A stretch of 36,393 nt of DNA, from contig JBHLRQ010000022.1 of the NCBI GenBank assembly GCA_048882385.1, forward strand, positions 1,864 through 38,256. Reading direction: 5' to 3'. The translations under genes and the position numbers were made by a program. This document shows positions 8,682 to 33,100 of the stretch, piece after piece (position 1 is the first letter of the stretch; the number at the start of each line of letters is the position of its first letter). The DNA comes from Candidatus Thorarchaeota archaeon. Lineage in GTDB: Archaea > Asgardarchaeota > Thorarchaeia > Thorarchaeales > Thorarchaeaceae. Under the pieces are notes generated by a model, which had not been told where the DNA came from, ran no database searches, and worked only from the letters and a program-made list of their open reading frames with translations.

Positions 8682-9980
8682 ATGATAATTCCAGGAACGA
8701 CTATCTCCTTAACACTGCTTCCAGCTTTCGTAGAAGTACGAGACAAAGGTGTTGTGAAAAAGAAAATCCCACTCAAAGAAAGATCTTTTGATGATGTTGC
8801 TTTAGAGCTCCAAAAATACCTACGTTATCTGGGAAAGCGTCTTGCTCCAGGAGTTCTTGAAGACGTATTAGATAAGATTGGATTGCCAAAAGCCCGACGT
8901 GTCCTTAAAGAGGAAGTGATTGCACCACCTGAACCTACACCAGAACCTGAACCGGATATTGTTACTCCAGAACCAGAACTTGTCAAGGTCGAAGCTGAAC
9001 CTAAGAAGAAAAGAAAAGGGTTGATAAAGAAGGAAGAAGAGCCGGCCGCAACTTTTGTGGAAGGACCAGGCGTAAGTGCTGATGAGAAAGGTTCAATCAG
9101 CGTTGAAGACTTTGATGATATTGCTGATGCGTTGCAAGTCGTAGAATCCTTGAGTGACTCATTCTTGACAGGGGAACCTCAGGAGAAACCAGTAACTGTG
9201 AAACCCAGACCTAAAATCAGCATTCATGTAAATGGTCAGGAAGAAATAGTAGCATCTCACAGGTCATATGCGCGAATTGCTGAAGCTGAAAGAATCGAGG
9301 AACCGGCTGAAGATGAGGAAGTAGAAGAGCCTGTTGAAGAATTTATTGAACTCGTAGCTGAAACTGTTGAGGAAGAAATAGAACCAACGCCACAAGTCAC
9401 ACCAACTCATCAGATTAAGCCCATTGTCGAATGTAAAGGACTCCTTCTTGGTGAAGATGGAGTAGGAAAGGAAACCCTGAAAGCTAAAGCAGAGATTGTT
9501 CCGATTTCCATTGGTGATGGAGAAGTGTCACCATATATTTTTGGGAAAGTCTTTGAGGGGGACAATCATCGAATCGATCTAAGAGTGTGGTCGTTCGACC
9601 TTGCAGTGAAGGCAAAGGTTCAACGAAAGCAATTCTACGAAGATTCTCAAATCATTATTATTATGTATGCAGCTTCAGATAGATGGAGTTTCGAGAGTAT
9701 CGATTTCTGGCTACGAGAGGCAACATTGTCATCTGAAGAAATGCCACCCCTAGTAATTGTAGCAAACAAGATTGATCTCAGAACTGATTCCTCAGAAGAT
9801 ACTGGTGATCAGCCAGTATCATATGACGAGGGATTCCAGCTTGCTGAGGAACTGGCGAAACGTTTCGGTTCTGATGAAAAGCTGCATCCTGTTGCGTTCA
9901 TCGAAACTTCCTGTGTATCAGGAGAAGGTATCGAAGATGTGTTTGAAACAGCAGTCCAACTCTTTGAAAACACTCTGTGA
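8682..9980 (+). CDS. Protein with N-terminal domain, acidic/Pro-rich linker and C-terminal Ras/Rab-like GTPase domain (degenerate)
   Basis: GEDGVGKE, DLRVW, FY..SQIIIIMY, SFESIDFWL, VIVANKIDL, FIETSC..GEGIEDVFE; GGTGGAG SD upstream. Confidence 0.88.
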   Translation: MIIPGTTISLTLLPAFVEVRDKGVVKKKIPLKERSFDDVALELQKYLRYLGKRLAPGVLEDVLDKIGLPKARRVLKEEVIAPPEPTPEPEPDIVTPEPELVKVEAEPKKKRKGLIKKEEEPAATFVEGPGVSADEKGSISVEDFDDIADALQVVESLSDSFLTGEPQEKPVTVKPRPKISIHVNGQEEIVASHRSYARIAEAERIEEPAEDEEVEEPVEEFIELVAETVEEEIEPTPQVTPTHQIKPIVECKGLLLGEDGVGKETLKAKAEIVPISIGDGEVSPYIFGKVFEGDNHRIDLRVWSFDLAVKAKVQRKQFYEDSQIIIIMYAASDRWSFESIDFWLREATLSSEEMPPLVIVANKIDLRTDSSEDTGDQPVSYDEGFQLAEELAKRFGSDEKLHPVAFIETSCVSGEGIEDVFETAVQLFENTL

Positions 9981-11286: not shown

Positions 11287-12000
11287 GTGGAGTGGGTATC
11301 GCTGAATAGTGACGTAATTGTTGACCTCCAATCAGTATCGCGTGTATATGACATGGGAGAGATTGAAGTACATGCCCTACGGGGTGTTTCTCTTCAAATC
11401 AAGAGAGGCGCTGCGATTGGAATCATGGGACCCTCAGGTTCAGGAAAGACTACTCTATTGAACCTCATTGGAGCCCTCGATAGACCTACGCATGGAACTG
11501 TTGTTCTCGATAATGTTGACATCACACATATGAACGAGGGCGAGTTAACGAAGGTTAGAAGAAACAAAATCAGTTACGTGTTTCAGTTCTTTAACCTACT
11601 TCCTGTTCTTACAGCTTACGAAAATGTCGAGCTTCCCCTTCTGATCGGTGGTGTAGATGAGGATGCACGGAAAGAGCGTGTTGACCATCTACTCTCACTT
11701 GTTGGGTTGACAGAGCGAGCTGACCACCGTCCAGACGAACTCTCGGGTGGCGAACAACAACGCATTGCAATAGCAAGAGCACTTGCTAAACCAGCCCAAT
11801 CAACTAATAGTGTCATCGTTTTAGCTGATGAACCGACTGGAGACTTGGACTACAACACAGGACAAGAGATCTTGGAAATATTGGTTTCCTTGACAAAGGG
11901 AGAAGGGGGAACTCTAATCACAGTGACACATGATCCAGAAGTCGGAGAGAAGATGGATCGTGTATACAAGATGCGTGATGGTCAAATCGAGAATCCATGA
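11287..12000 (+). CDS. ABC transporter ATP-binding protein, LolD/MacB family
   Basis: GPSGSGKT, YVFQFFNL, LSGGEQQR, LADEPTGDLD, VTHD. Confidence 0.95.
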   Translation: MEWVSLNSDVIVDLQSVSRVYDMGEIEVHALRGVSLQIKRGAAIGIMGPSGSGKTTLLNLIGALDRPTHGTVVLDNVDITHMNEGELTKVRRNKISYVFQFFNLLPVLTAYENVELPLLIGGVDEDARKERVDHLLSLVGLTERADHRPDELSGGEQQRIAIARALAKPAQSTNSVIVLADEPTGDLDYNTGQEILEILVSLTKGEGGTLITVTHDPEVGEKMDRVYKMRDGQIENP

Positions 12001-12009
12001 TAGGGGCAA

Positions 12010-14820: not shown

Positions 14821-17658
14821 ATGTTTCTCTTCTCGCGCTTATCTGCCCGAACTCCAGAGGTTCTAGCAACATTACTCATATTTTCATTGTCAAGTGGAGT
14901 TCTCGGCGGAATTCTATTCTATATGGATTCAACAGCGCCTACCGTTCTTGGGGACATGACATCGCAAGTTCCTGTTGATATGGAGATTTCATTCAATTAC
15001 CCGTTCTACTACCAAAATACAACCACAGCTGATGATATCAGAACCATCGTCGAAGAACAAGAGATTGTACAATCGACAGAAATCGTTTCACAAGCACAGT
15101 TCTGGGATTACTGGGAAGCAGACTACCAATACAGTAGGAAAGCGTTTCTCGGAGTGGATAGTTCTGTCTTTGAAACTTTTCCAAAGGCAATAGAACTTGA
15201 TACGGGTTCATTGTCATACGATGACCAATCTTGTGTTGTTGAAAAATCAAGATTCGTTCGAGATGGTCTTCAGATTGGCGGCAACTATAGTCTTTCATTC
15301 TATATACGTGATGAGAATTGGACCGATGTACTTGTCGAGCAAACATTCGTTATCGTCGGAACATTTACGTCGAATATCTTCATGCATTCTCCAATTTGGG
15401 GTCAACCTGAAGTTACTTACTTACAGATGATCACAACTCCAGACGCATTAGAATCAGTTTTTGGGATAATGCCTCCGGATGAATGGGAAGGCTACACAAA
15501 AAGGATTTGGGTAGGATTCGATAAGCAAACCATTCTTGAAACCGACTCTCAAGCGATGCTCGAATCATTGGATTCTGTGAAAAAGCAAATCGAACAAGCA
15601 ACTCTGCCATATGCGATGATAGGCTACGATGGATTCGGACTTATCAATGCAGTCTATGAGTTTGCTGTATGGTCCACCAACGTAAGAGCGATTGCATTAG
15701 CATTTTCGTTACCTTCAGTATTCATGGGCTTGATGCTAATACAATACAATACAAAATTGGTTTCTGATGAACAAAGGCGAGATGTTGGAACTCTTAAAAC
15801 CCGTGGATCCTCAGGAATACAAGCTTTCAGTTGGGTTTTGAGTAGTGCTGTTGCTACAGGTGCTGTAGGAAGTCTGGGCGCAGTTGTGGTAGGTGCCGGA
15901 TCAGCATTGCTTTCTGGATCCGTTCGTGAATTATTTGTATTCAATTTGGAACAATTGGAAGGTTTCGCTCTACTCCTTCATCCAATAGCAGTATTGTTTG
16001 TCTTTCTATTCTCATTTGTGGCAGGAATTCTAATAGCTCTACCAGGAGCCATCAAAGCACTAATCATGACTCCGACTGAAGCCCATGGGATTCTAGAAGG
16101 AGAGATAATTACTGACTCTGAGAAAATGGGAAATCCATCCATTGACCTTCTAGCAGTTGGTGTATCGGGTTGGCTATTGATGCCCATGTTGGCATTCTTT
16201 GCTTTATTTGGTGTAGGAGCATTTGGAGTGGTAATCATCCCATTATTTGCGGTATTCCTATTTGCTTTTACACGTGGACTTTCAAGACCTACAGCTTTGA
16301 TTAAATCGAAACTACTATCCCTAGTACGAAGACCGTCATTAGTTGTTGGTTCCCGATTAATGTCCCGCACTGTTCTGATGTTCAAGAAATCACAAGCTAT
16401 GGGGACGATGTTCATCGCAATGGTGTTCTGTGCAGGTCTATTTGCTTCAATATCAGCTACAACTGGAGACACGCACATGAAACATCTATTTCAGTTTCAG
16501 ACCGGAGCAGATATTGCAGTAGATGTAGATGTATCACTCGAGAATGTAACAATTGATCTTGTGGATAATATAACAGCAGTTGATGGAGTGATGCAAGTAA
16601 GTCCAATGTTACAGACAACAGGATACATACAATATTGGAACTCCTATTACATTGGCATGGGAGAGAATGTTAACAGGAGCATAACAGTTTTTGGAGTAGA
16701 ATCTGAAACTTGGGCTTCAACCGCATTCTTCCTTGACTACTTCACAATGCTAGATTCACCTAGTAACTCAATTGCGAAATTAGCAGATTATTCCGACGAC
16801 AGCGCAAATATCATGTCAACGTTTAAGCCAATTTCAAACTACGTGTTAGATCAGATAACGCAAATACCTAGACCAGTCTATTCCAATGTTCTTGATCTTC
16901 AGATCTTTAGTGCTGATTGGTATAATCAAACGGAATGTTATATCATCGATCTCATGGTCAACACACAAGAATCGTCAATGACTAGTGCCCAGACATATTT
17001 ACCTGGTGAGCCAGACGCCACTGACTTCATAGTCATGGACCTGACATTGCTCCATTCGTGGATTAATTCGACAAAGGTGACAAAGTTCTATGTAGATTTG
17101 GAACCAGGTGCAAACTACACTCAAGCAATGATTGACATATACAATGTTGCACCGGATAGTTTCACTGATGTGGAAGCAGCAAATGAGTTCATTGACGAAG
17201 TGTTGGAATCGAGAGCGACACAATCGATCTACGGTGCATATACACTCAATGTGATTTTCTCCTTAATCTATTTGACCATTGGAATGATAATTGTGACTAT
17301 GGTCAGAGTTAGAGGGCTTCGAAGGCAGTTCTCTGTACTCAGAGCCTTAGGAACTGAAGCAAATTCAATAATCTTCGCAACACTTGCGGATACATCAATT
17401 GGATTGGTACTGGCTGCTTTAATTGGTGGGAGTATTGGAGTAGGTCTTGCATTCCTGCTTCAAAATGTACCATTACTTTACATGGGAATAACAACTTCGC
17501 AACTATGGGCAAGACTACCGGTCGCATTAATATTACCATGGACGCTAATATTGATAGTAATTGGAACAGCTGTGATAGTGTCCCTTATAGCGACCTATTT
17601 CGTTCTTTTGAGAACACTGAAACTCAATATTGCAGAGGAGATACAATACACGGAGTGA
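14821..17658 (+). CDS. Large FtsX/MacB-like ABC permease, type B
   Basis: EQRRDVGTLKTRGSS, RRQFSVLRALGT, TGADIAV. Confidence 0.92.
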   Translation: MFLFSRLSARTPEVLATLLIFSLSSGVLGGILFYMDSTAPTVLGDMTSQVPVDMEISFNYPFYYQNTTTADDIRTIVEEQEIVQSTEIVSQAQFWDYWEADYQYSRKAFLGVDSSVFETFPKAIELDTGSLSYDDQSCVVEKSRFVRDGLQIGGNYSLSFYIRDENWTDVLVEQTFVIVGTFTSNIFMHSPIWGQPEVTYLQMITTPDALESVFGIMPPDEWEGYTKRIWVGFDKQTILETDSQAMLESLDSVKKQIEQATLPYAMIGYDGFGLINAVYEFAVWSTNVRAIALAFSLPSVFMGLMLIQYNTKLVSDEQRRDVGTLKTRGSSGIQAFSWVLSSAVATGAVGSLGAVVVGAGSALLSGSVRELFVFNLEQLEGFALLLHPIAVLFVFLFSFVAGILIALPGAIKALIMTPTEAHGILEGEIITDSEKMGNPSIDLLAVGVSGWLLMPMLAFFALFGVGAFGVVIIPLFAVFLFAFTRGLSRPTALIKSKLLSLVRRPSLVVGSRLMSRTVLMFKKSQAMGTMFIAMVFCAGLFASISATTGDTHMKHLFQFQTGADIAVDVDVSLENVTIDLVDNITAVDGVMQVSPMLQTTGYIQYWNSYYIGMGENVNRSITVFGVESETWASTAFFLDYFTMLDSPSNSIAKLADYSDDSANIMSTFKPISNYVLDQITQIPRPVYSNVLDLQIFSADWYNQTECYIIDLMVNTQESSMTSAQTYLPGEPDATDFIVMDLTLLHSWINSTKVTKFYVDLEPGANYTQAMIDIYNVAPDSFTDVEAANEFIDEVLESRATQSIYGAYTLNVIFSLIYLTIGMIIVTMVRVRGLRRQFSVLRALGTEANSIIFATLADTSIGLVLAALIGGSIGVGLAFLLQNVPLLYMGITTSQLWARLPVALILPWTLILIVIGTAVIVSLIATYFVLLRTLKLNIAEEIQYTE

Positions 17659-18554
17659 CAACTATGACAGAGAATTTAGACGATATTGCTGAACAATACA
17701 AAATTGTGGTCCGAGACCTGATGAAGGTCTACAAACGCGGACAGAAAGAAGTCATTGCCTTGAGGGGTGTTGATTTCGAAGTTCGCCATGGTGAGTTTCT
17801 ATCCATCATTGGTCCGAGCGGAAGTGGCAAGTCAACACTCTTGAAGATGTTAGGAGCCTTGGATACACCAACCGCTGGAGCTGTGTTATATGATGGTCAT
17901 AGTGTCACGATGCTCGACGATAGAAGGGCCATGCTTTATAGAAGACAGAAGGTTGGATTCATCTGGCAGGTAGGCAACCTCGTACCTGGGCTCTCAGCGC
18001 TCAAGAATGTCACTCTTCCAATGAAGCTTGCTGGAGCTCCTACAAAGGTAGCCGAGAAGAGAGCACTAATGCTTTTGGACGCGATGGGACTCAGTCCCAG
18101 GATTGAACATAAACCAAATCAGATGTCTGGTGGAGAAAACCAACGAACTGCAATCTGCGTAGCATTGGCTAACAAACCCGAACTCGTTCTTGGTGATGAA
18201 ATCACTGGAGAGTTGGATAGTGAAACGACCGAGATGGTGATGCAATCATTGAAGATGACCAATGAAGAGTTTGGAACAACAGTAATCAATGTGACACATA
18301 ATCCATCTGTAACAAAGTATGCAGATCGTGTGTTAAGAATCAGGGATGGGCTCATTGAGGGACAGAAACATACGCTCTATGGCGATATTACTGAAGTGGA
18401 TGCCAAGGGGCGATTGGTGATTCCAGAAACTGTTAGACGCCTTGCTGGAATTAAAAAGCGAGTCGTCCTAAAGGCTACGTCTGAGGGTCTTTTGATTAGT
18501 CCACTTAGTACAGATGAAGAGAACAACAATTACAACAATGAAGCAATTCAGTAG
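17655..18554 (+). CDS. ABC ATP-binding protein (LolD/MacB family) with C-terminal AbrB/MraZ-like domain
   Basis: GPSGSGKS, GFIWQ, MSGGENQR, GDEITGELD, VTHN; tail TEVDAKGRLVIPETVRRLAGI; GTG 17655 overlaps the upstream TGA (alternative ATG 17664). Confidence 0.93.
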   Translation: MTTMTENLDDIAEQYKIVVRDLMKVYKRGQKEVIALRGVDFEVRHGEFLSIIGPSGSGKSTLLKMLGALDTPTAGAVLYDGHSVTMLDDRRAMLYRRQKVGFIWQVGNLVPGLSALKNVTLPMKLAGAPTKVAEKRALMLLDAMGLSPRIEHKPNQMSGGENQRTAICVALANKPELVLGDEITGELDSETTEMVMQSLKMTNEEFGTTVINVTHNPSVTKYADRVLRIRDGLIEGQKHTLYGDITEVDAKGRLVIPETVRRLAGIKKRVVLKATSEGLLISPLSTDEENNNYNNEAIQ

Positions 18555-18620
18555 AGCATCAAGAATTAATTGGAGAATCTCTATATTGAGGAAGAAAAGG
18601 CAACAATAGGTGATAGAACG

Positions 18621-18857
18621 ATGAGCAAACAATCACTGCCATGGTCTTATTATGCGGTTATTCTTACATTTGGAATCTTCTTTGCCACCTCGAATATCTA
18701 CATCTTCACGTTGTGGCTAGCACATCCACTCGCAAGTCCATTATGGCTCATAGGCGTTGCTATTGGAGCTATAGGATTAATCTACTCCATTAGTATGGTT
18801 CGAAATCACCAGAGAGAATTAATTGAGAAGAAGAAATTGGAAGAGGAAACCAAGTAG
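18621..18857 (+). CDS. Small 2-TM membrane protein with charged tail
   Basis: AGGTGA SD upstream of ATG 18621; two hydrophobic helices. Confidence 0.78.
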   Translation: MSKQSLPWSYYAVILTFGIFFATSNIYIFTLWLAHPLASPLWLIGVAIGAIGLIYSISMVRNHQRELIEKKKLEEETK

Positions 18858-18944
18858 CTGCCATTTCGGTGAAAAGCGTAATCAGTAAGAAATATCTCTC
18901 GGTGTTGTGCGCTTCCATTAGAATTACGAGGAAGAAGTGGATAG

Positions 18945-21719
18945 TTGATACAACAAGAAACCGTTAGTATAGGTAAGGTAAGGCGGAGAGGACTTACGCT
19001 GGCATGCTTTGTTCTTGCTATCACTCTTGTTGCTGGGATATCAATATACACAGATAGTCTTGCATCTCAACAGTGGGAGATCCACACCTCAATCGGTTCT
19101 GTAGCCATGAAAGTGAAGGGTGATAATGTTCATGTAATAATAGACGACATCTCTTCACTTCCTGAGATTACGAGTCTTAGCACAATTGAAAAAGCACGAG
19201 CGTTCCTAAGAATGGATCAAGATGAGATCTTTCAAGGCTCACCTGATAATCCATTGAATCCTGTCTTTCTAGCTCAAGGCTTTGCGTATTCCTTGAATAG
19301 TGAGTTTATCGAATCGTTTCCATACAAATTTGTTCTAGTTGTTGGACGATGGCCTGAAAATGGATCAGAAATTGCTATTGCATATAATGATGCCGCATAT
19401 TGGAATATTCCTATTGGTCGAATGATGAATTATACACACACTCTAAATGGAGAGAAAAGAACAGTCTTTGTTGTTGGAATATTTACACAGCCTGATTCTG
19501 ATGCCATTGAACTTTATGCAACAGATGCAGTTGCCATTGTCACTGAGGATGTTTTGAATCCTGAAGATAAATCAATTGAGATCTTCGCAAACATCGATAG
19601 AACTATCATAACACCTTTGGATGGCAGGGGAAGTTTAGCTAGACTTCAAGAACTTGATGATAAAATCAAGGCTCTTGATCCAGATTATTCTCCTACAACG
19701 CCATATTCAGAATATATTGTTGAGAATTATTTGGAGGTAGGAGTTAGAGAGTACATTGATTGGTTAAACACAGCAAGACTTCATCAAATCGGGAGATCTC
19801 AGGGAACGATACTTCTTGGGGGTATGTTGTTTCTCATGGCAGTTAGATTCAATACTGACGCCAGAAAAGATGAGTTACGACTTTGGTTCTCCCGAGGAGC
19901 ATCCAATAGAAGAATAACCACCTTAGTAGTGGGAGAGATTCTTGGCATTTCAATATTATCGTGTGTCTTTGCCTTATTTTTTGGAATTGTAGGAAGTCGC
20001 CTTGCTTACGCATCAACTGATTTTCTCCACTTTGAATCAAATTTGCTGAGCTCCTCAAGTTTCATGATAACTTATGACACACTGTTCTTTTTGCTTGCAA
20101 TCAGTATTGTAACACCTCTGATAGTCTATGCCATAAATCAGAGAACGAAAAGTGAAGAAATAATTGAAGAGCAAGAACATGGAAGACTAGCTAGATTCAC
20201 TAGAGCGCTAAGGATGATTCGCTGGGATGCAGCCATTCTTGTGACTGCGCTCCTATTTCTGATCGCTCTTAATATTGGTGGAAACACTGTTCGAAATATT
20301 CCATCACTGATGTTCATATTCTACTATTTACCAATTCCACTCTTTTTGGGAATAGCAAGCCTGCTAAGCAAAATCCTTCTACAAGCATCAAATGTAATCT
20401 CGAAAATCTATTCTAGAATGAATCGCCAAACAGTATCATATTTGGGAATAAGAAGAATTGGAAAAAGGGTGAGATATGCTGCACCGGTAATTCTTGTGAT
20501 TGGAATAACTATGTCAGTTTCTTTGAATTCTATGATTATTGCTGAGTCAATTCCACAAACCCAGATCAATCATTCAAGGTTCTTAATCGGAGCTGATGTG
20601 ACATTTCATCTCAATATAGACTCCAATGAGTATTGGCCCACAATATTTGAGTGGACTGCAAATCATACTAATGTTGAAAGCATAAGTATGGCATCAGTCG
20701 GAACTTTGACTTTTTCCGAAGGAAGTTCAGGCGAGGTAGAATTCATTGCAATCAACCCTAGCGAATTTATCAAGGTTGGCTTCAGTTATTTAGGAATAGG
20801 TCTTGAAGAATCGTCACTATCAATGATTCTAAATGATCTGGAGTTAAACACAGAAGGTGCAATTATTTCTCAGGATGTTGCTAACGAATATGATGTGCAT
20901 ATTGGTGACTCAATTCGTGCCTTTACTATTAATGAAATTGAGGATATCACAGAGTTTAACGTCATTGGAATTGTTCCTGCTCTTTCAGCACCCAACACAA
21001 TAAATGCGATGTTAACTGACCAAGGCGAAGCCCTCGGTTTAGGAAAGGTTTGGGTAAACAGTGAATATTTGTCTTCAATCATCGACCTTAACGGTACATC
21101 AGAGAATTTTCTGTGCGTGAGGACAAAACCGGGTTATAATGGAACAGCTCTGGGAGAAGATTTTGAACTGGAATTTGGTCCATCAGTTCTAGAGGCGGAT
21201 GGTTGGTCTGCAGTTGAATTTGAGGTTGATGCGTTAGTTTCGCAATCCCAATATCAAATTGATAGAGCAATTGATTCCATGCTCGTAATGATTTCAATAT
21301 TTTCAGTTGTATTAGCACTAACGCTATATAGAATTCAAGGTAACTTGCACGGAAAAAGGGAAAATGCAATTCTTAGAACACTAGGAGCAGGAAAAAGGAA
21401 TATAATCTCAACACAAGTTCATGAGCTTCTTGGAATTGTTATATTGACATTTTTCATTCTTGCCATCTTTGGTCCAATTCTAGTAATCAATTCAGTTGAA
21501 GCTGGTATGACAACGTATAGCATCTGGTCTTTTGAATTTCCAATAGGACCCCAAATCTCTATAAACTCAAACATGTTGGGATTCAGTCTTGGATATTTCA
21601 TAATTATTCCAATTGGTTTACTTCTTCTTCTATATGCAAGACCTTCACATGAAAATATGACTCAAGCTTTAGATGCAGGGTGGTCTAAACGAAACTTAGA
21701 TTGGGAGGAGTGGAGTTAG
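18945..21719 (+). CDS. Large FtsX/MacB-like ABC permease, type A paralog
   Basis: RRRGLTLACFVLA..GISIYTDS matches RRKGVTLLCFLLA..GITVYVDS of 12010; RWD, GIRRIGK and YQIDRAIDSML are shared; start uncertain (TTG). Confidence 0.9.
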   Translation: MIQQETVSIGKVRRRGLTLACFVLAITLVAGISIYTDSLASQQWEIHTSIGSVAMKVKGDNVHVIIDDISSLPEITSLSTIEKARAFLRMDQDEIFQGSPDNPLNPVFLAQGFAYSLNSEFIESFPYKFVLVVGRWPENGSEIAIAYNDAAYWNIPIGRMMNYTHTLNGEKRTVFVVGIFTQPDSDAIELYATDAVAIVTEDVLNPEDKSIEIFANIDRTIITPLDGRGSLARLQELDDKIKALDPDYSPTTPYSEYIVENYLEVGVREYIDWLNTARLHQIGRSQGTILLGGMLFLMAVRFNTDARKDELRLWFSRGASNRRITTLVVGEILGISILSCVFALFFGIVGSRLAYASTDFLHFESNLLSSSSFMITYDTLFFLLAISIVTPLIVYAINQRTKSEEIIEEQEHGRLARFTRALRMIRWDAAILVTALLFLIALNIGGNTVRNIPSLMFIFYYLPIPLFLGIASLLSKILLQASNVISKIYSRMNRQTVSYLGIRRIGKRVRYAAPVILVIGITMSVSLNSMIIAESIPQTQINHSRFLIGADVTFHLNIDSNEYWPTIFEWTANHTNVESISMASVGTLTFSEGSSGEVEFIAINPSEFIKVGFSYLGIGLEESSLSMILNDLELNTEGAIISQDVANEYDVHIGDSIRAFTINEIEDITEFNVIGIVPALSAPNTINAMLTDQGEALGLGKVWVNSEYLSSIIDLNGTSENFLCVRTKPGYNGTALGEDFELEFGPSVLEADGWSAVEFEVDALVSQSQYQIDRAIDSMLVMISIFSVVLALTLYRIQGNLHGKRENAILRTLGAGKRNIISTQVHELLGIVILTFFILAIFGPILVINSVEAGMTTYSIWSFEFPIGPQISINSNMLGFSLGYFIIIPIGLLLLLYARPSHENMTQALDAGWSKRNLDWEEWS

Positions 21720-24575
21720 ATGTTTCTTGTTTCTAGAGCTAAGTCACAAGCGCCTGAGATATTAGTCGCTTTCCTAGTTTTTTCATTATCTACAGGTGTA
21801 GTTGGGGGAGTTCTACTCTATCTAGATAGTGTTGGACCTGAGGTTTTGAATGAAATGTCAGTTGATATGCCAATTGGGATGCAGATCCACTTCCGTCCGG
21901 AGTTCTATCAGCAGAATGTGACTACATATAGTGTCATTGAGGAGCGGGTGGCTGCACAAGAACAAGCAGAATCAGTTGAAGGTGTTTCAATTATTGAGAT
22001 TTACGATGAAGAAGTAGAGGATTCCAAATATTCTAGAAATGTAATAATGGGAGTCGAGTCAAGCTTTTTTGAAACATTTTCAGATATTGTTTACACCCCA
22101 TCTGGTACAGCAATTTTGAATGAATCAATTTGCTATATCCAAAGAAACCTACTTTTTGAATTGGGACTTAATATTGGAAGCAACTACACGATTTCTGTGC
22201 CAACAATAGATGAAAACAAGAATCCGATACGAATCAATTCTACCCTTACGGTAGCTGGTGTGTTTGAATCTAATCTCTTTCAAAGGAGGATAAGTTATGA
22301 TCAACCATCTTTCTCTTCGCTTTTTGTAATTACAGCAAGACCTACTCTGCAGACTTATTTTGGTGAGCTTGATCATGCTGGAACCAACAGTTTGCTTGAC
22401 AGAATCTGGGTGAATTTTGATACAAACAAACTCACTCTTAACGATCCTACATCTATGCTTAGTTCTTTGAGGCAAATTGAACGACAGCTAGAGCAGGATA
22501 TTCTACCATATGCTTCAGTAGTTGAGTATGATCTGATTAGTGTAGCTTACCAATATTCCACCTGGGCTACAAGTATGAGAATAATAACGATGGCATTTGC
22601 TGTCCCATCTGTCATTATGGGACTAATGCTGATTCAGTACAATTCAAACCTATTGGCAGATGAAAGGAGAAGAAATGTTGGTGCTCTAAAAACTCGCGGA
22701 GCCACTGGCCGACAAACTATGTACTGGGTTTTGTCGATGTCGATCTTTAACGGAATTGTGGGGAGTTTCGGAGCGATTCTTACAGGAGCAGCGGCTGCTT
22801 TCATGGCTGGTGGAGTGAGAGAGCTGATGACATTCAATCTTTCTCAGATACTGAGCTTCGCAATTAATCTGAAGCTTGAATCAATTGCCATTTTGTTTTC
22901 ATTCTCATTCATATTGGGTTTGATTGTTTCCTTACCTGGAACAATCAATGCGTTTTTGATGTCTCCAGCAGATGCACACAGTGTTATTGAAAGAAAAGAG
23001 CTGACTCCAAAAGGAAGCTTGGGAAACCCTGTTATCTACGCATTGATGCTTAGTATTTCAGGAGTGCTTCTCATTCCGCTATTGGGAGCGATGGAATCCT
23101 TGGGAAGTTTTACCCTAGGTTCTACATTTCTTGGACTGACAGTGATTCTTCTATTAGCAATCTTTATTCTAGGGTTTGTTCTTCTCCTTGCGCAACCAGC
23201 GGCGTCGCTGAAATCTCGAATTCTACTGCGAATTAATAAACAGTCACTAGTTGTTGGAACTCGTGTTGTTGGAAACTCATCACGAATGTTCAGAAGGAGT
23301 GAAGCGATGGCTATCATGTTCATTTCACTCGTCTTCGCCGCAGGAATATTCTCCTCATTGGCGGCTGCTACAGGAAGTAACCATATGAAAGAGCTATTTT
23401 TGTTTGAAACTGGTGCAGATATTGTAATTGATGTAAAGCCAGGATTAACAAATCTGACTTTGGATTTCATTCCCGCAATTGAATCAATAGATGGTGTTTC
23501 AAAAGCAAGTGGGATGATTAAGACTTCGGCATATGTCACATTCTACAGTGACTGGTATGGATACTATCTATTTTGGAACAGATCAATCGAGTTGTATGGA
23601 GTTCAACCAAGCGAGTGGCTTGAATCAGCATTTATCCTTCCATACTTCACATATTATCACGATACAGCATCTTCAATATTGGAATTAGAAGACGAAGAAA
23701 CGAATGTCATTACAAACTTCCAACCTCTTCTTGGCTATGAGATTGATTCACTAGGCCAGCAGGTAGTCAGCTATTCAGACTATATTTCGTTGGAGCTTGT
23801 GGGTCCAACTGAAAAACACTATCTCAACTGTACTATCGTTGATATAATGTCAAATAATCCAAGGGGATTTGAGCCAATAGGCTTTTCACGCTCAGAATAC
23901 ATTGGAGCTTCATATATTCCTGGAGAAGAAGGGAATCATCCTTTCATCATGCTTAACATTGAAAATGTTCACAACTACCTCAATGTTTCATATGTAACTA
24001 GGTTTTATGTAGATCTAAATGAGGGAGTAAATTATACTCGAGTGATTGATGAATTGACAGCTCTCGCTCCTGGCAGTTTTGAGAGTGTGGACTCACCATA
24101 TTTTGGAATTGATGCAATCCGTGACTCAAGAGCAGGTCAAACAATTCATGGAGCATATACACTCAATGTCTTGTTCTCAATTCTCTATCTTACTGCCGGG
24201 GTTACTTTGGTGACAACAATAAAGATTAGAACAATGAGCAAACACTTCTCTCTCCTTCGTGCGCTTGGAACTGATGCTCGTTCTATTATCAGCTCAGTTC
24301 TCATAGATTCTTCATTAAGTGTAATTCTTGGTGGGATAATTGGAGGCCTTACGGGAATTGTACTCACCTTTCTTACATTTCAAATGCCACTGAATTATCT
24401 TGGGCTTTCAAATGAGGTAACATGGGACTATCTCCCACTGGTACTATCTATTCCTGTGCCTTTGCTCATTGCTTTGACTACAATTGCCATTGTATCTTCT
24501 CTGTTAATCAGCTTGGTCATAATTCGGAGGAAACTTGAAACAAATATCGCTGATGATATCCAACATTCAGAATGA
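21720..24575 (+). CDS. Large FtsX/MacB-like ABC permease, type B paralog
   Basis: MFLVSR..PEIL..FSLSTGVVGG matches 14821; ERRRNVGALKTRGA; GAYTLNV; C-terminus NIADDIQHSE. Confidence 0.92.
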   Translation: MFLVSRAKSQAPEILVAFLVFSLSTGVVGGVLLYLDSVGPEVLNEMSVDMPIGMQIHFRPEFYQQNVTTYSVIEERVAAQEQAESVEGVSIIEIYDEEVEDSKYSRNVIMGVESSFFETFSDIVYTPSGTAILNESICYIQRNLLFELGLNIGSNYTISVPTIDENKNPIRINSTLTVAGVFESNLFQRRISYDQPSFSSLFVITARPTLQTYFGELDHAGTNSLLDRIWVNFDTNKLTLNDPTSMLSSLRQIERQLEQDILPYASVVEYDLISVAYQYSTWATSMRIITMAFAVPSVIMGLMLIQYNSNLLADERRRNVGALKTRGATGRQTMYWVLSMSIFNGIVGSFGAILTGAAAAFMAGGVRELMTFNLSQILSFAINLKLESIAILFSFSFILGLIVSLPGTINAFLMSPADAHSVIERKELTPKGSLGNPVIYALMLSISGVLLIPLLGAMESLGSFTLGSTFLGLTVILLLAIFILGFVLLLAQPAASLKSRILLRINKQSLVVGTRVVGNSSRMFRRSEAMAIMFISLVFAAGIFSSLAAATGSNHMKELFLFETGADIVIDVKPGLTNLTLDFIPAIESIDGVSKASGMIKTSAYVTFYSDWYGYYLFWNRSIELYGVQPSEWLESAFILPYFTYYHDTASSILELEDEETNVITNFQPLLGYEIDSLGQQVVSYSDYISLELVGPTEKHYLNCTIVDIMSNNPRGFEPIGFSRSEYIGASYIPGEEGNHPFIMLNIENVHNYLNVSYVTRFYVDLNEGVNYTRVIDELTALAPGSFESVDSPYFGIDAIRDSRAGQTIHGAYTLNVLFSILYLTAGVTLVTTIKIRTMSKHFSLLRALGTDARSIISSVLIDSSLSVILGGIIGGLTGIVLTFLTFQMPLNYLGLSNEVTWDYLPLVLSIPVPLLIALTTIAIVSSLLISLVIIRRKLETNIADDIQHSE

Positions 24576-28209: not shown

Positions 28210-28626
28210 ATGACAAAAATCGAATGGGATGACAGTCTCTCAGTTGGAGTCGATTTAATTGATGAACAGCACAAGATGCTAATCCAAAGGATCAGAGATT
28301 TGTCTGATGCAGTTAATTTGAGTAGAGGCGCAATTGAGATTGGAAAGACTCTTGGATTCATGATTGATTACACAGGATTTCACTTCTCGACCGAGGAAAA
28401 GTATATGACTGATTTAAGCTATCCCGGTTTCGATGTTCATAAGACTCAGCACGAGGAATTCAAATCCACACTCGATGAGATGGTGATGGAATTCAAAGAA
28501 GACGGTGCTACCGCTCAACTAAGTGAGTGGGTAAATAATTATCTAATCAACTGGTTGGTAAAACACATCAAATCAATTGATACAAAGTTGAGTGAGTTTC
28601 TTCGAGAAAAAGGATTTGAGGGATAG
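28210..28626 (+). CDS. Bacteriohemerythrin (single domain)
   Basis: W..SLSVGV..IDEQHK, HFSTEEKYM, HKTQHEEF, WLVKHIKSID: di-iron ligand set intact. Confidence 0.95.
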   Translation: MTKIEWDDSLSVGVDLIDEQHKMLIQRIRDLSDAVNLSRGAIEIGKTLGFMIDYTGFHFSTEEKYMTDLSYPGFDVHKTQHEEFKSTLDEMVMEFKEDGATAQLSEWVNNYLINWLVKHIKSIDTKLSEFLREKGFEG

Positions 28627-28650
28627 AAAGAGAATCCATCCCACTTGTTT

Positions 28651-29532
28651 CTACCTTATCTTCAGAATTGATGAGATATTTGCATGTTGATCAATAACTG
28701 GCTCAATCATTCCTGCTGTAGAAGTAAAAAGTGTAGTCACACCAGGACCATGACCAGAGATAACACAGTCACTGTGTACAATGATTCCAACAGAAACTGC
28801 GCCTTTCTTGTAGATACGACCAAAGGAATGGTCAGCATCCATGATTGCCACAAGATCACCAAATCTCAAATTATCAAGACCATACTCTTTGTTCGTACCT
28901 TCATCGAAGAGTTGTATATCATAGTCACCAGAATATGTTTCATCATCACCAAGTCCAGAGCCCATAATTTTAGCTGGTACCTTATGTGTAACAGGAATAC
29001 CTAGTTTTCCATCCCTCTCTTGGAAATTAATTCTCTTTAGAAAATTCGGATCCATACTCATGACTTTGATGTCAGGATAATCAAGTAATTCCAGACCTTG
29101 ACCATATGCTTTGATCAACATCTTATCGCCAATGATCAACTGTTCCATAATCTCCTCAGAGAAGTCGACCATAACATGCTCAATTCCTCCATGTTTTCCA
29201 ACAACTGTGCCCTTCTCTCCCTTTGCATCACCAGTTATTACTTTGGCTTCATTACCTACACATGCAAGGATGTTTAGTGATGTGTTTGCCATCTGTTTGA
29301 ATCGAGCATCATCTTCTTTGTTTTCAATACTCACTCCAGGCTCAACATGGTCTGCCTTCCAACCTGTGGCGGGGTCTCCAACACGTAGGTTGTAAGTTAT
29401 TCCTCCAACACTGGGCAAAGTAACAGGTCTACCATCGTGACTAATTCGATAGGCTGAACGTGCAACTGGACTAGCTATTTCACCCATCACAGATATTTTC
29501 ACAAGTTTGTCTTCATTTGTCTTAACTTGCAT
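28651..29532 (-). CDS. DUF4438 family protein
   Basis: KTNEDKLV, GGITYN..VGD...W.ADHVEPGVS, ACVGN, GKHGGIEHV, GDYDI, SGHGPGVT; family recognised from memory. Confidence 0.85.
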   Translation of the reverse strand: MQVKTNEDKLVKISVMGEIASPVARSAYRISHDGRPVTLPSVGGITYNLRVGDPATGWKADHVEPGVSIENKEDDARFKQMANTSLNILACVGNEAKVITGDAKGEKGTVVGKHGGIEHVMVDFSEEIMEQLIIGDKMLIKAYGQGLELLDYPDIKVMSMDPNFLKRINFQERDGKLGIPVTHKVPAKIMGSGLGDDETYSGDYDIQLFDEGTNKEYGLDNLRFGDLVAIMDADHSFGRIYKKGAVSVGIIVHSDCVISGHGPGVTTLFTSTAGMIEPVIDQHANISSILKIR

Positions 29533-29601: not shown

Positions 29602-30432
29602 TCAAATGTGTTCTTCAAGCCAACTAAACATGTCAGCGAAGACTTCTTCGCCTCCTTCCTCATGATAGGGTTCATGATATAATCCAGGGTAAAGTTTCCA
29701 TGTTTTATCATCTGACGCGATATTATCATAGAATTCCTTGTTACGATCTGGATCCAGAATTAGATCATCACCAGATTGTTGCACCAAAACAGGTACTGTA
29801 ATCCTATTAGCAGAGTTAAACGCATCTTTACTTGCTTTTAATCCCTCTATGGCATACCTTGGTGTAGCCTTATCAAACCGAAGAGGGTCCTCTTTATTGT
29901 CTTTTACGATTTCAGGATTTCTTGAAATCAATTCATGATCAAGACCATTGTCAAAATACATCTTCACATTAAGTCTTGAGAGGAAAGATGCAATCGCTCT
30001 TGTTGCAGAACCTACTTTCAGACGCTCAGAAACTGCTGGAGCTGGTATGATGATTCCATCAGCCTCACCTGGATGTTTAGTGATATAATGGATGATAAAA
30101 ACAGCTCCAAGAGAATGACCAAAAAGGAACAGCTTCTTGTCCTGGTGAAGCAGTCTCATATATGCAACCAGAGATTCCAAATCATCTGTGTATTCATCAA
30201 AACTCTCGACATGACCTTTACGGCCAGGAAAAGTTCCAAAACCCCGCAAATCGGGAGCGTAGAAAGCATATCCCTCTGATGTAAAACGTTCTCCGAGGTA
30301 TGATAATCGGCCGCTATGAGATCCCAAACCATGTAATCCAAGCACAATCGCTTTAGAATCACCTTCAGGTTTCCAAATACGCAGAAGCATTGTTGTGCCG
30401 TCGAATCCTTGATATGTACTCTCCACAGCCAT
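29602..30432 (-). CDS. Lysophospholipase/monoglyceride lipase (alpha/beta hydrolase)
   Basis: HGLGSHSGR, DLRGFG, GHSLGA, YPGLYHE; start taken at ATG 30432. Confidence 0.92.
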   Translation of the reverse strand: MAVESTYQGFDGTTMLLRIWKPEGDSKAIVLGLHGLGSHSGRLSYLGERFTSEGYAFYAPDLRGFGTFPGRKGHVESFDEYTDDLESLVAYMRLLHQDKKLFLFGHSLGAVFIIHYITKHPGEADGIIIPAPAVSERLKVGSATRAIASFLSRLNVKMYFDNGLDHELISRNPEIVKDNKEDPLRFDKATPRYAIEGLKASKDAFNSANRITVPVLVQQSGDDLILDPDRNKEFYDNIASDDKTWKLYPGLYHEPYHEEGGEEVFADMFSWLEEHI

Positions 30433-30487
30433 ATTAAAAACCGAGAAGACACATGAGCAAAGTGCCCTATGTGTCTTCCGAAAATGA

Positions 30488-31315
30488 TTATGAGCGCTCA
30501 TCTAAGAAAGAGAATTGCATATTCGGATAATCAATGATTGTTTCAAAGTTCTTCAAGAAATCATAGCCTATTATCCCATTTTCGATGAGACATCCTTTGG
30601 GTGAAACTTTACTAAGATCTATGACAACAATCTGGGAATTTGTAATCTGCGCTGGACCCACGGAAAGTGATTCCAGTCCAGCCATTTTTAATTCCACATC
30701 ACCGCCTATACCTCTAGCGATTCCTTGAACAGCCTGAGCTTCAATACCAACTTTCTCAGCAAGTCCGGGCGTCATGACAGTATTTCCAGCTCCGGTATCA
30801 ACAACAAAATTATACGGTCCCTTACCATTGATATGAACTGGAACACCAACCAGATGGGAGTCGTTGATGTATTCAAAAGGACTCCATGCGATGCCGTTGC
30901 CATTAGAATTAGAATCACCTTTCTTGAGTTTGAACTTCTGCTTATTGTAACTGAGAGAAATCGTGCAATGCTTCAAAGTCGTGTATCCTAATACTCCTTC
31001 ACGACCTCCGGAAGTTTTCAATAGCGCATTAACATCTAATACATAGACTTCATCTTTCTCAAACTCAAGTGGTCCTACACCAATAGCTACATCCGCATAC
31101 TTTGTTGGAACACTACCCCCAATTCCATGTGCTTCCTTTTTGCTACCCATATGTGTAACAATTCCTAAGCTCTCTGCAAGTTGGGGAGTAAGAGTTGTCA
31201 CAGAAGCACCAGTATCCAAGTCGAAGGTGAATGGTCCTTGACCATTAACCTTGACTGGAACTTTTACGAGACGTGTACCAAAGTCGATTTTCACCTCAAC
31301 CTCCATTGTAGCCAT
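30488..31315 (-). CDS. Tandem two-domain retropepsin-like aspartyl protease
   Basis: FDLDTGAS...GIGG...GVLG and FVVDTGAG...GIGG...GIIG; GAGG upstream of ATG. Confidence 0.92.
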   Translation of the reverse strand: MATMEVEVKIDFGTRLVKVPVKVNGQGPFTFDLDTGASVTTLTPQLAESLGIVTHMGSKKEAHGIGGSVPTKYADVAIGVGPLEFEKDEVYVLDVNALLKTSGGREGVLGYTTLKHCTISLSYNKQKFKLKKGDSNSNGNGIAWSPFEYINDSHLVGVPVHINGKGPYNFVVDTGAGNTVMTPGLAEKVGIEAQAVQGIARGIGGDVELKMAGLESLSVGPAQITNSQIVVIDLSKVSPKGCLIENGIIGYDFLKNFETIIDYPNMQFSFLDERS

Positions 31316-31320
31316 CCTCG

Positions 31321-32139
31321 TTACTCAGGTTTTGTACCAGCAATATAAGCACTGTAAGCGCCATAGAGGCTATTTCCAGCTTTGCTATTAATCCGAGCAT
31401 CGTTGAATCCCGCATCACGCATGTGTTGCAAATATTCCTCATCAAGAATAGCTCCACCAATGCAGCCCGTGTAAGTTATAACTTCATCACGAACTTCCTT
31501 TGGTAGTGGTTTGGAAAGCACAATATCACTTACCATTACACGACCACCGGGCTTTAATACTCGATAGACTTCACGGAATACCTTTCCCTTGTCAGGGGCT
31601 AGATTGATTACACAATTACTGATTACTACATCTACAGAGTTGTCCTCTACAGGCATGTCCTCGATGTCCCCATAACGGAACTCCACGTTTGTTATTCCTA
31701 GCTCTTTAGCATTCTTTTCAGCCTTCTCAATCATGGCAGGTGTCATATCAACACCAATGACCTTTCCTGTTTCACCCACCTTCTTACTAGCGACAAACAT
31801 ATCGAGACCTGCACCACTTCCGAGATCAAGAACGACCTCGCCTTCATTCAAACTAGCGAGAGCAACAGGATTTCCACAGCCTGCAAACGATTCAGTGGCT
31901 CCGGTTGGCATACCCTCAGTGTCATATCCAAGAGCGTTTGCCAAGCTTACTCTTGTAACCTTAGCTTCCTCTTGAGGACCGCAACAACTTGAGGATGTTT
32001 GAGTTGGTCCACAACTTGCATCATTGCAACTCGGAGATTGTTCATCAGAAGTCCAAGTTCCCTCAGCTACTCGGGAATATGCGTCCCGTACAGCTTCTTT
32101 GATCTCATCAGATTTCATTTCACTTACTTTCTTCGTCAT
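31321..32139 (-). CDS. arsM: Arsenite S-adenosylmethionine methyltransferase
   Basis: N-terminal CC, FAGCGNP, VLDLGSGAGLD, VISNCVINL, GCIGGA; start taken at ATG 32139 rather than 32247. Confidence 0.92.
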   Translation of the reverse strand: MTKKVSEMKSDEIKEAVRDAYSRVAEGTWTSDEQSPSCNDASCGPTQTSSSCCGPQEEAKVTRVSLANALGYDTEGMPTGATESFAGCGNPVALASLNEGEVVLDLGSGAGLDMFVASKKVGETGKVIGVDMTPAMIEKAEKNAKELGITNVEFRYGDIEDMPVEDNSVDVVISNCVINLAPDKGKVFREVYRVLKPGGRVMVSDIVLSKPLPKEVRDEVITYTGCIGGAILDEEYLQHMRDAGFNDARINSKAGNSLYGAYSAYIAGTKPE

Positions 32140-32273
32140 CTTTTGCTTTCTCCTGAGAACCACAACATCCTGATGCTTGTCCCTGTCCAGTTTTTGTCCC
32201 TTCTGCAACCTGAGAGTATGCATCGCGAACAGCCTTTTTGATCTCATCAGATTTCATTTCACTTACTTTCTTC
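32098..32273. repeat. Exact 37-bp direct repeat (32098-32134 and 32237-32273)
   Basis: TTTGATCTCATCAGATTTCATTTCACTTACTTTCTTC occurs twice, offset 139 bp. Confidence 0.95.
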
Positions 32274-32278
32274 ATCAT
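32120..32278 (-). CDS. 52-aa small ORF paralogous to the ArsM N-terminus, with CCG motif (not in ORF track)
   Basis: MMKKVSEMKSDEIKKAVRDAYSQVAEGTKTGQGQASGCCGSQEKAKDDEESK*; GGTGG SD; mostly synonymous divergence from arsM. Confidence 0.68.
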   Translation of the reverse strand: MMKKVSEMKSDEIKKAVRDAYSQVAEGTKTGQGQASGCCGSQEKAKDDEESK

Positions 32279-32415
32279 ATAACCACCGTTCTGTTTGGAT
32301 TAGAATTTGAAATTTCATCGTCACCACAAGATAATTGACATGAGAACTTAGACTTGGTTTTGATTTGGATCTCACGTTTTGATGGAGTTTCCTTAGCAAC
32401 TTTGTCTTGAATCAT
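32275..32415 (-). CDS. 46-aa small ORF with CxxxC (not in ORF track)
   Basis: MIQDKVAKETPSKREIQIKTKSKFSCQLSCGDDEISNSNPNRTVVI*; GGTGA SD; ATGA overlap with the next ORF. Confidence 0.55.
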   Translation of the reverse strand: MIQDKVAKETPSKREIQIKTKSKFSCQLSCGDDEISNSNPNRTVVI

Positions 32416-32428
32416 TCAATCACCAACT

Positions 32429-32500
32429 ATATTGGGTGTCCAATATTTGTTGATATTGGGCATCCTATATATACATTTAAATGTATCGGACATCCAATAT
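32429..32500. promoter_or_regulatory. Divergent promoter with three ATATTGG-N4-CCAATAT boxes and a palindromic TATA element
   Basis: Boxes at 32429-46 (perfect), 32453-70 and 32483-500; ATACATTTAAATGTAT palindrome at 32471-86. Confidence 0.8.
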
Positions 32501-32506
32501 TTCAAC

Positions 32507-32878
32507 ATGAACGAGGAATCCGACCTTGCCCAGTGTTGTCCGCCCGACTGTTGTGACATGAGAGGATTTCTTACATTCCAGATTCTATGGGAGCTTGATA
32601 GGGAAGAACTGAATGGACAGCAGATCGCTGAAAGAATTGCCAAGAGGAGGGGTACAAAACCTACTCCAGGAACAATCTATCCTGCGCTCAAAGAGTTGAA
32701 GAAAGGCAAGTACATCAAGGGTACAAAAGATGGCAGGCAGATTGTCTATCGTCTTACTGAAGAAGGTGAGAAAGCGCTTCTAGACGCATCACGATATTTC
32801 ATTCAAGCGTTTGGTGACATCGCTGAAGATGTCAAAGTGAAAGTTATAGTGATAGAAGGCGACGATTGCGACTGCTAA
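32507..32878 (+). CDS. PadR-family winged-helix regulator with Cys-rich termini
   Basis: MRGFL...IL, PTPGTIYPALKEL...G, Y.LTEEG; CCPPDCC at the N-terminus and CDC at the C-terminus; start ATG 32507. Confidence 0.9.
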   Translation: MNEESDLAQCCPPDCCDMRGFLTFQILWELDREELNGQQIAERIAKRRGTKPTPGTIYPALKELKKGKYIKGTKDGRQIVYRLTEEGEKALLDASRYFIQAFGDIAEDVKVKVIVIEGDDCDC

Positions 32879-32951
32879 TTGTGATCACAAGTGGTTTCAT
32901 TGTTTTATACTAGTTGTGAAAATGAAAACATAGCTACGTAAAACTAACATT

Positions 32952-32992
32952 GGGAGAAGAGATTGAAGAATCTCTTTTCTTCCCCTTTCTCT
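32952..32992 (+). terminator. Hairpin plus pyrimidine tract downstream of padR
   Basis: GAGAAGAGATT-GAAG-AATCTCTTTTC followed by TTCCCCTTTCTCT. Confidence 0.4.
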
Positions 32993-33100
32993 GTGAATTT
33001 TTGTCCACACAATTGCTCACATTTAAAAGGCGTCTTATATAGAACCGACAAGTCCCTTATATACTCTATAAAGGCAAGAGAGAAAGCGGAGTTATTGCAG

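Follow-up and report, generated by a model that had tools for sequence, protein, structure and literature searches.

In the present study, we analyzed a 36-kb stretch of a contig from a Thorarchaeota (Asgard) archaeon (the window; coordinates given without a locus name are window positions), in which the gene for a cysteine-rich regulator of the PadR family, here called CC-PadR, lies beside arsM, a gene of the arsenite methyltransferase family. An earlier note on this DNA had described a PadR gene with a CCPPDCC motif and a terminal CDC, divergent from a minus-strand series of two small open reading frames (ORFs; orf46 and orf52), arsM, a retropepsin gene and a lipase gene, had seen no ArsR, and had taken the whole series as a candidate arsenic regulon. 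Every gene was found as described, with the same overlaps and gaps, and the plus-strand CC-PadR gene does diverge from the minus-strand series (Table 1). The absence of ArsR also held within the window: in a Pfam scan of 31 ORFs (those of at least 90 amino acids (aa) plus orf46 and orf52; 12 scanned at E ≤ 0.01 and 19 at E ≤ 1e-4), 0 of 31 matched an ArsR-type family, and acr3, arsC, arsA and arsD were not found among the same ORFs. As for the origin of the DNA, the nearest PadR homologues are named Thorarchaeota by their sources, and all of the close loci are Thorarchaeota records of metagenome-assembled genomes (MAGs); the gene content of the window includes a TATA-binding protein (TBP) and a Ras-family GTPase.

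Table 1. Positions of the genes and of the predicted regulatory features at the CC-PadR-arsM locus
Feature	Position	Strand	Remarks
CC-PadR gene	32507..32878	+	ORF 32432-32878; ATG at 32507 gives 123 aa
arsM, short-form arsenite S-adenosylmethionine methyltransferase	31321..32139	-	272 aa; NF008823
Candidate operator O1, TTGGGTGTCCAA	32432..32443		core of an 18-bp perfect palindrome, 32429-32446
Candidate operator O2, TTGGGCATCCTA	32456..32467		one-mismatch variant; repeat family D5
Candidate operator O3, TCGGACATCCAA	32486..32497		TATA-side site before the PadR ATG
orf46, 46-aa leader frame	32275..32415	-	stop overlaps the next start as ATGA; Shine-Dalgarno (SD)-like GGTGAT at 32419-32424
orf52, 52-aa ORF	32120..32278	-	20-nt overlap with the arsM start at 32139; copy of the arsM 5' end
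Tandem retropepsin-like aspartic protease gene	30488..31315	-	5 nt past arsM; Asp_protease_2
Hairpin and T5 run between retropepsin and lipase genes	30436..30481	-	by folding; minimum free energy (MFE) -24.5 kcal/mol
Alpha/beta hydrolase gene, lysophospholipase-like	29602..30432	-	Hydrolase_4; 55-nt spacer if the start is the ATG at 30432

The start codon of the CC-PadR gene is probably the ATG at 32507, because that start is the one kept in homologues. In the protein so defined, CCPPDCC occupies residues 10-16 and the C-terminal end is CDC. The Pfam profile of PadR (PF03551) matched residues 51-116 of the longer ORF with 42.9 bits (cutoff 27). A model made with AlphaFold2 (AF2) on a 104-sequence alignment (predicted local distance difference test, pLDDT, 87.1; predicted template modelling score, pTM, 0.78) has helices at residues 22-32, 37-48 and 54-66, wing strands at 70-75 and 78-83 and a helix at 85-116, that is, a winged helix-turn-helix made up of three helices and, after it, a single long helix at the C-terminus, which in the PadR architecture serves for dimerisation. 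In a Foldseek search of the PDB, the matches listed were almost all of the PadR family, led by Thermoplasma TA0346, Halobacterium RosR, Rv3488 and LmrR (top entries 3elk, 6qfd, 1xma, 5zi8, 5dym and the LmrR entries; probability 1.00, query-normalised template modelling score 0.55-0.66), and a sequence search of the PDB also gave PadR structures. In ArsR/SmtB proteins, the wing is preceded by four helices and followed by a fifth; the model of CC-PadR shows three helices ahead of the wing. The ArsR/SmtB profile NF033788 gave 21 bits against a cutoff of 55, HTH_5 and HTH_20 were not among the Pfam matches of the protein, and Penicillinase_R (PF03965, CopY/BlaI) remained under its cutoff (20.2 bits; cutoff 22.6). 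CC-PadR is thus a regulator of the PadR fold and stands outside the ArsR family, as both the profile match and the topology of ArsR/SmtB were lacking and the profile match and architecture of PadR were present. PadR proteins are homodimers.

The protein database search gave 709 homologues of CC-PadR. In the best 120 of these, the CC-x3-CC arrangement was found in 108; in the other 12, the sequence of the predicted protein begins only beyond the motif. In an alignment of 29 sequences (60-92% identity), C10, C11, P12, P13, C15 and C16 are invariant. Of the two cysteine features that the earlier note had pointed out, the N-terminal one is therefore conserved, with all four of its cysteines, whereas the C-terminal one is not universal: CxC or CxxC ends 91 of the 120 best homologues, and CxC was found in 40 of the 80 loci compared below. 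In the AF2 model, CC-x3-CC lies in a flexible tail directly before helix 1 (pLDDT 53-74) and CDC follows the last helix. A search of a library of 50%-identity representatives gave 593 matches to more distant relatives, which mostly have one or two cysteines right before helix 1 and more rarely four; the helix-1 anchor could be located in 69 of 150 representatives, of which 17 have two cysteines there, 18 have one and 21 have none. Thus, the four-cysteine form is an elaboration within a wider archaeal subfamily. It could be argued that the motif holds a structural or redox cofactor (Zn or an iron-sulfur cluster) and that the protein responds to a different effector, for example oxygen, SAM or S-adenosylhomocysteine, or a methylated product. 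The low model confidence of the tail would fit this, since such tails often become ordered upon cofactor binding, and so would the anoxic sediments from which the host organisms come. However, vicinal cysteine pairs are unusual ligands of Zn or iron-sulfur clusters, and the distant relatives with one or two cysteines before helix 1 fit a tunable sensing site better than a structural cofactor that is obligatory; we regard a cofactor site as unlikely.

For comparison of the genomic context, we used 80 of 120 confirmed loci, one genome per species, which had been retrieved by two peptide patterns. Their source records name Thorarchaeota, Hermodarchaeota, 'Promethearchaeota', Bathyarchaeota, Methanomethylicota, Thermoproteota and Thermoplasmatota. 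An ArsM homologue is directly upstream and divergent of CC-PadR in 78 of the 80 loci, including L075, in which the partner is present with part of the gene masked by a run of N, and the distance from start to start is typically 78-165 nt. When the 894 ORFs of the neighbourhoods were clustered, PadR (80 loci) and ArsM (78 loci) were the sole widely shared families, the next ones occurring in 22, 20 and 19 loci, and the pair was found in 45 different flank combinations. The homologues of CC-PadR are hence linked to an arsenic gene, and the co-occurrence expected with arsM, acr3 and arsC holds for the first of them and not for the other two, which are absent from the 55 recurrent neighbour families. 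The position of arsM is occupied by a tRNA gene in L073.

The ArsM protein of the window exceeded the cutoff of the NCBIfam arsenite methyltransferase profile NF008823 (313.8 bits; cutoff 263) and matched the solved ArsM 5evj with an E value of 7.8e-41. The alignment to 5evj and 4kw7 spans the GCG, SNCV and GC-GGA cysteines and the SAM motif VLDLGSGAG. Among 79 partner ArsM proteins, Cys52, 53, 88, 176 and 226 are kept in 76-78, and the three cysteines aligned with conserved cysteines of solved ArsM in 76-77; residues that bind As(III) are given for ArsM in the literature. Of 16 diverse partners sampled, 15 exceeded the cutoff of NF008823, and the partner in L079 fell short of it (252 against 263). 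The loci L063 and L064, which are on two contigs of the same MAG, have two identical copies of the ArsM partner.

The 91-nt intergenic region of the window contains three palindromic operator-like sites (O1 to O3) with the core TYGG-N4-CCRA. Counted in the 160 nt upstream of PadR in each of the 80 loci, this core occurs 150 times in 12.8 kb (11.7 per kb), as against 63 times in 744 kb in the rest of the loci (0.085 per kb), an enrichment of about 138-fold. At least one site is present in 78 of the 80 loci, and two or three in 64. The evidence that marks these sequences as putative operators is comparative. In 51 of the 80 loci, the PadR start is preceded by a site at -20 or -21, and the site-anchored consensus is TTTAAATGTA-TCGGACATCCAA-TA (72 rows) with the start codon 8-9 nt further on, an arrangement that holds across phyla and that, judged by its sequence, is a TATA box, a predicted operator and a leaderless start. 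In the window, O3 is 3 nt past the TATA-like TTTAAAT (32476-32482) and 9 nt ahead of the PadR ATG, and it is the predicted site of autorepression on a leaderless promoter. O2 abuts the stretch TATATATA (32466-32473), a possible TATA box for the promoter on the arsM side, and equivalent sites are found at about -50 in other loci; O1 is located at the start of the arsM-side transcript, which is expected near 32444. The second and third predicted sites thus overlie the TATA and start region of that transcript, and an operator that covers this region is the classic geometry of repression in archaea.

The adjacency of the two genes might reflect conserved gene order with no regulatory link, the palindromes being bound by another factor. 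However, the pair persists through all of its flank combinations, and the palindromes keep their fixed distance from the PadR start in the 51 loci mentioned above. Furthermore, two loci that lack arsM, L039 (5640-6003) and L073 (5640-6003), have both retained a palindrome ahead of PadR, and L073 keeps the TATA box too, which fits autoregulation that has persisted after loss or relocation of arsM. We consider a conserved gene order with no regulatory link to be very improbable.

On balance, we lean towards the reading that CC-PadR and arsM form a two-gene autoregulated detoxification cassette, in which PadR would repress transcription at the palindromes, trivalent arsenic would release it and arsM would then be expressed. 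The dimer of PadR fold would bind the TYGG-N4-CCRA palindromes in the divergent promoter region of about 90 nt, with one site flanked by the TATA box and the leaderless start of PadR and one or two more over the TATA box and start of the arsM side. Since these positions cover both promoters, the archaeal transcription machinery would be recruited to neither of them while the sites are occupied. As(III), methylarsenite or both would be bound by the thiolates of the N-terminal CC-x3-CC, to which the C-terminal CxC of the partner subunit, where present, may add, and this binding would shift the geometry of helix 1 and of the winged helix. The repressor would leave the DNA, arsM would be expressed and As(III) would be methylated. 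That PadR binds the palindromes and represses from them, and that arsenic is the signal, we infer; in the case of the signal, the reasons are that the partner gene is arsM and that clustered thiols have a suitable chemistry.

One possible alternative is that PadR regulates arsM and itself but senses another thiophilic or redox signal (Cd, Cu(I), Hg, Sb(III), sulfide, polysulfide or the oxidation of thiols are candidates), arsM being one output of a response to soft metals or thiol stress. The four-cysteine cluster and the CxC tail are not specific for arsenic, and the nearest solved relatives include the Halobacterium hsRosR chains and Rv3488 of Mycobacterium tuberculosis. RosR is reportedly a regulator of the oxidative-stress response, and Rv3488 is said to have been studied in connection with cadmium. 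According to one report, a PadR-family protein of Halobacterium rose upon treatment with Cu and Ni (PMC6978704). However, the only conserved partner is a member of the arsenite methyltransferase family (78 of 80 loci), and no metal efflux, thioredoxin or peroxidase family was found among the 55 recurrent neighbour families. We judge such a signal to be rather unlikely.

Several observations weigh against the arsenic-responsive cassette itself. A site for Cd, Cu(I), Hg, Sb(III) or Zn, or else a redox switch, would agree just as well with the four clustered cysteines and the CxC tail, and the CxC is missing in 21 of the 80 loci, in which PadR is still paired with arsM. No arsenic gene of the set acr3, arsC, arsA and arsD was found among the 55 recurrent neighbour families or the window ORFs scanned, and arsM is therefore the only pointer to arsenic; to judge from a cold-seep survey (PMC10060404), the ArsM-family enzymes of Asgard archaea are not known to have been assayed. 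Two loci have CC-PadR and no arsM, with a DinB-family gene (L039) or a tRNA gene and V-ATPase genes (L073) beside it. In the window alone, the strict operator motif occurs 4 times against 1.6 expected, and 9 of 100 shuffles reached 4, which is not significant. Finally, the comparative set comprises 80 of the 120 confirmed loci, and the conservation of the motif among the 80 loci is partly circular, because one of the two search patterns was the cysteine motif itself; the independent evidence for cysteine conservation comes from the database homologues and the 29-sequence alignment.

The small ORFs between the promoter and arsM had been listed in the earlier note as cysteine-containing members of the unit, and this view was not sustained for either of them. 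As for orf52, an 83-nt direct repeat (32057-32139 and 32196-32278, 83% identity) relates it to arsM, and its product matches positions 2-40 of NF008823 (E 1.3e-5): it encodes the N-terminal segment of ArsM through the CC motif, then diverges and stops. The repeat marks orf52 as a copy of the arsM 5' end that arose by tandem duplication. Intact equivalents were observed in L001 (5552-5716), L009 (5609-5779), L012 (1917-2087), L018 (5569-5730) and L028 (5702-5920); these stand-alone ArsM N-terminal peptides have 52-72 aa, and all of them keep the CC motif. By inspection of the translations, each copy looks closer to the arsM of its own genome than to the copies of other genomes, which suggests recent, repeated duplication or gene conversion. 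As small homologues of orf52, just 2 proteins of near length were found in the protein database.

The other small frame, orf46, is present in 13 sequences, in 12 of which it is full-length, whereas in L006 it is cut short by a premature stop. The differences fall evenly on the three codon positions (0.40, 0.38 and 0.42), synonymous codon differences are rare (321, as against 2031 nonsynonymous ones), and no Pfam or NCBIfam match was found. A conserved cysteine peptide was considered for orf46 and rejected, there being no third-position excess and the first cysteine being kept in 10 of 13 sequences; orf46 is probably a leader, translated or untranslated, and not a conserved protein. Its 'SCQS' (Cys) block is kept at the nucleotide level and, in the structure proposed by RNAalifold, is complementary to the SD and start region. 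In the alignment, 89% of cells pair in this way, as against 25-54% with a slid partner; the covariation analysis gave 1 compensatory pair, and 291 of 500 shuffles did as well or better. In the window itself (32275-32445, minus strand; alignment A3, columns 22-34 and 103-116), the block also resembles the anti-sequence of the similar ribosome-binding site of the next start, and the orf46 leader folded no better than shuffles (z = +1.0). The block may be an element of translational control, proposed here on its complementarity, with no covariation support.

The retropepsin encoded after arsM matches Asp_protease_2 in two stretches (E 2e-34), and its translation has two DTGA motifs; it is a single-chain tandem, a pepsin-like pseudo-dimer, in an Asgard archaeon. 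As the gap is 5 nt, it is probably co-transcribed with arsM in the window. The hydrolase that follows matches Hydrolase_4 (E 1.2e-64). The earlier note had counted both genes as members of the unit, and had the small ORFs, arsM, the retropepsin and the lipase form one functional arsenic regulon with accessory detoxification genes. Tight packing in the window (the ATGA, the 20-nt overlap and the 5-nt gap) speaks for such a regulon, as does the presence of the retropepsin next to arsM in 22-23 of the 80 loci. However, all of these loci, and the 19-20 with the hydrolase, belong to the Thorarchaeota clade of the window, a starred clade of 22 rows in the ArsM tree, which also shares unrelated neighbours, namely TBP (21 loci), an M50 protease (14 loci), DUF4438 and hemerythrin. 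Outside this clade, arsM is mostly followed by unrelated genes, and 30 different families adjoin ArsM. In addition, a strong hairpin with a T5 run divides the lipase gene from the retropepsin gene, and orf46 lacks a coding signature. The wider regulon is therefore improbable in our estimate, and neither it nor the membership of the protease and the lipase was upheld; the conserved unit is the two-gene cassette of PadR and arsM.

The hairpin itself folds better than all of 200 shuffles (0 of 200 as stable; z -6.8). Its left arm recurs in the majority of 18 syntenic loci, even where the right arm has been lost, and a clear hairpin (MFE -18.9 to -26.1) is present in just 4 of the 18 (L006, L009, L043 and L049); two other loci, L004 and L018, have a run of at least five T. 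It is possible that the hairpin is a transcript end or a processing site, and the left arm may have another role. A terminator scan found 1 candidate against 2.6 expected, and the larger hairpin was spotted by eye and then folded.

Of the remaining content of the window, bacteriohemerythrin and DUF4438 genes lie just past the lipase gene (28210-29532) and are syntenic in 8-10 related loci. At 11287-24575 (plus strand), two successive sets, each with the gene for an ABC (ATP-binding cassette) ATPase and then two genes for very large FtsX/MacB-like permeases (924-951 aa), suggest that a transporter unit of three genes has been duplicated in tandem. A 432-aa protein encoded at 8682-9980 (plus strand) has a small GTPase domain of the Ras/Roc/Arf type at its C-terminus; 'eukaryote-like' genes such as those for small-GTPase proteins are typical for Asgard archaea. 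An Rfam scan of 31800-33000 gave just two sub-threshold, chance-level matches, mir-450 and sR33, and a scan for sigma-70 promoters (10 found, 7.9 expected) was uninformative, the host being an archaeon.

The As(III) sites of ArsR proteins and of ArsD consist of three thiolates, often with a vicinal cysteine pair, at positions of the fold that differ by lineage. As comparators we take R773 ArsR, Acidithiobacillus ArsR, Corynebacterium ArsR1 and the methylarsenite-selective ArsR of Shewanella. CC-PadR resembles ArsR/SmtB proteins in being a small winged-helix protein and a predicted dimeric repressor, probably autoregulated, beside an arsenic gene; the sensing site is presumed to consist of cysteine thiolates, including vicinal pairs, and is located in a terminal extension and not in the core; the repeated origin of As(III) sites at different positions in ArsR/SmtB is a precedent. 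However, it belongs to another fold family, with three and not four helices before the wing and then a long C-terminal helix, its clustered cysteines are four and not three, and the TYGG-N4-CCRA palindrome, its candidate operator, follows an archaeal TATA box. With the single-domain PadR proteins LmrR, TA0346, Rv3488 and Halobacterium RosR, it shares the architecture and size (the subtype of about 110 aa), palindromic operator-like sites and a divergent target gene (putative in CC-PadR). Among the characterised single-domain members, the known signals are phenolic acids, drugs and oxidative stress, and the CC-x3-CC tail, which distinguishes CC-PadR, was not seen in the printed query-chain alignments for 3elk, 4esb and 6ez1. 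The copper repressors CopY/BlaI also combine a winged helix with a terminal cysteine-rich metal site (putative in CC-PadR), but the cysteine cluster of CC-PadR is N-terminal and its partner is arsM, not a copper ATPase. In the metallochaperone ArsD, an N-terminal vicinal cysteine pair and a nearby cysteine bind As(III); its fold is unrelated and has no DNA-binding domain, and the analogy is one of chemistry only. The comparison supports the view that the regulatory logic is known, working like that of an ArsR-controlled ars operon, and that the scaffold and the site are new.

A full-text literature search gave no paper that ties a PadR protein to arsM or to As(III) sensing. PMC13732558 was ruled out as such a paper, its sole match to 'PadR' being the name of an author, and PMC6016940 mentions no more than a network prediction for a bacterium, in which a PadR-like protein is connected to one related to arsenic. 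The cold-seep survey PMC10060404 describes arsM and acr3 in Asgard genomes, and the word 'regulator' is absent from its main text.

In the Thorarchaeota clade of the window, the arsM transcript would have gained a leader (orf46), the duplicated arsM 5' end (orf52) and the downstream retropepsin gene. We tentatively put forward the broader claim that CC-PadR is an unrecognised family of As(III)/methylarsenite sensors on the PadR scaffold, an independent invention of a thiolate site outside ArsR/SmtB, whose compact sensor-effector cassette may have persisted in Asgard archaea, Bathyarchaeia, Methanomethylicota and Thermoplasmatota, perhaps with exchange between these groups, and to which one Thorarchaeota clade may have added a post-transcriptional layer, made up of an N-terminal ArsM peptide that stands alone and of a leader with a conserved block whose sequence is complementary to that of ribosome-binding sites.

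The uncultured archaea that abound in sediments influence, by methylation, how mobile and how toxic arsenic is. If CC-PadR is an arsenic sensor, a further protein scaffold would join those with a known role in metalloid sensing, and its compact combination of archaeal sensor, operator and promoter would be available for the design of biosensors. Furthermore, CC-PadR beside arsM would be a simple genomic marker of arsenic-responsive methylation in Asgard and Bathyarchaeia genomes. The layout of TATA box, predicted operator and leaderless start offers a clean test case of repression in the Asgard archaea, in which almost no regulators have been characterised.

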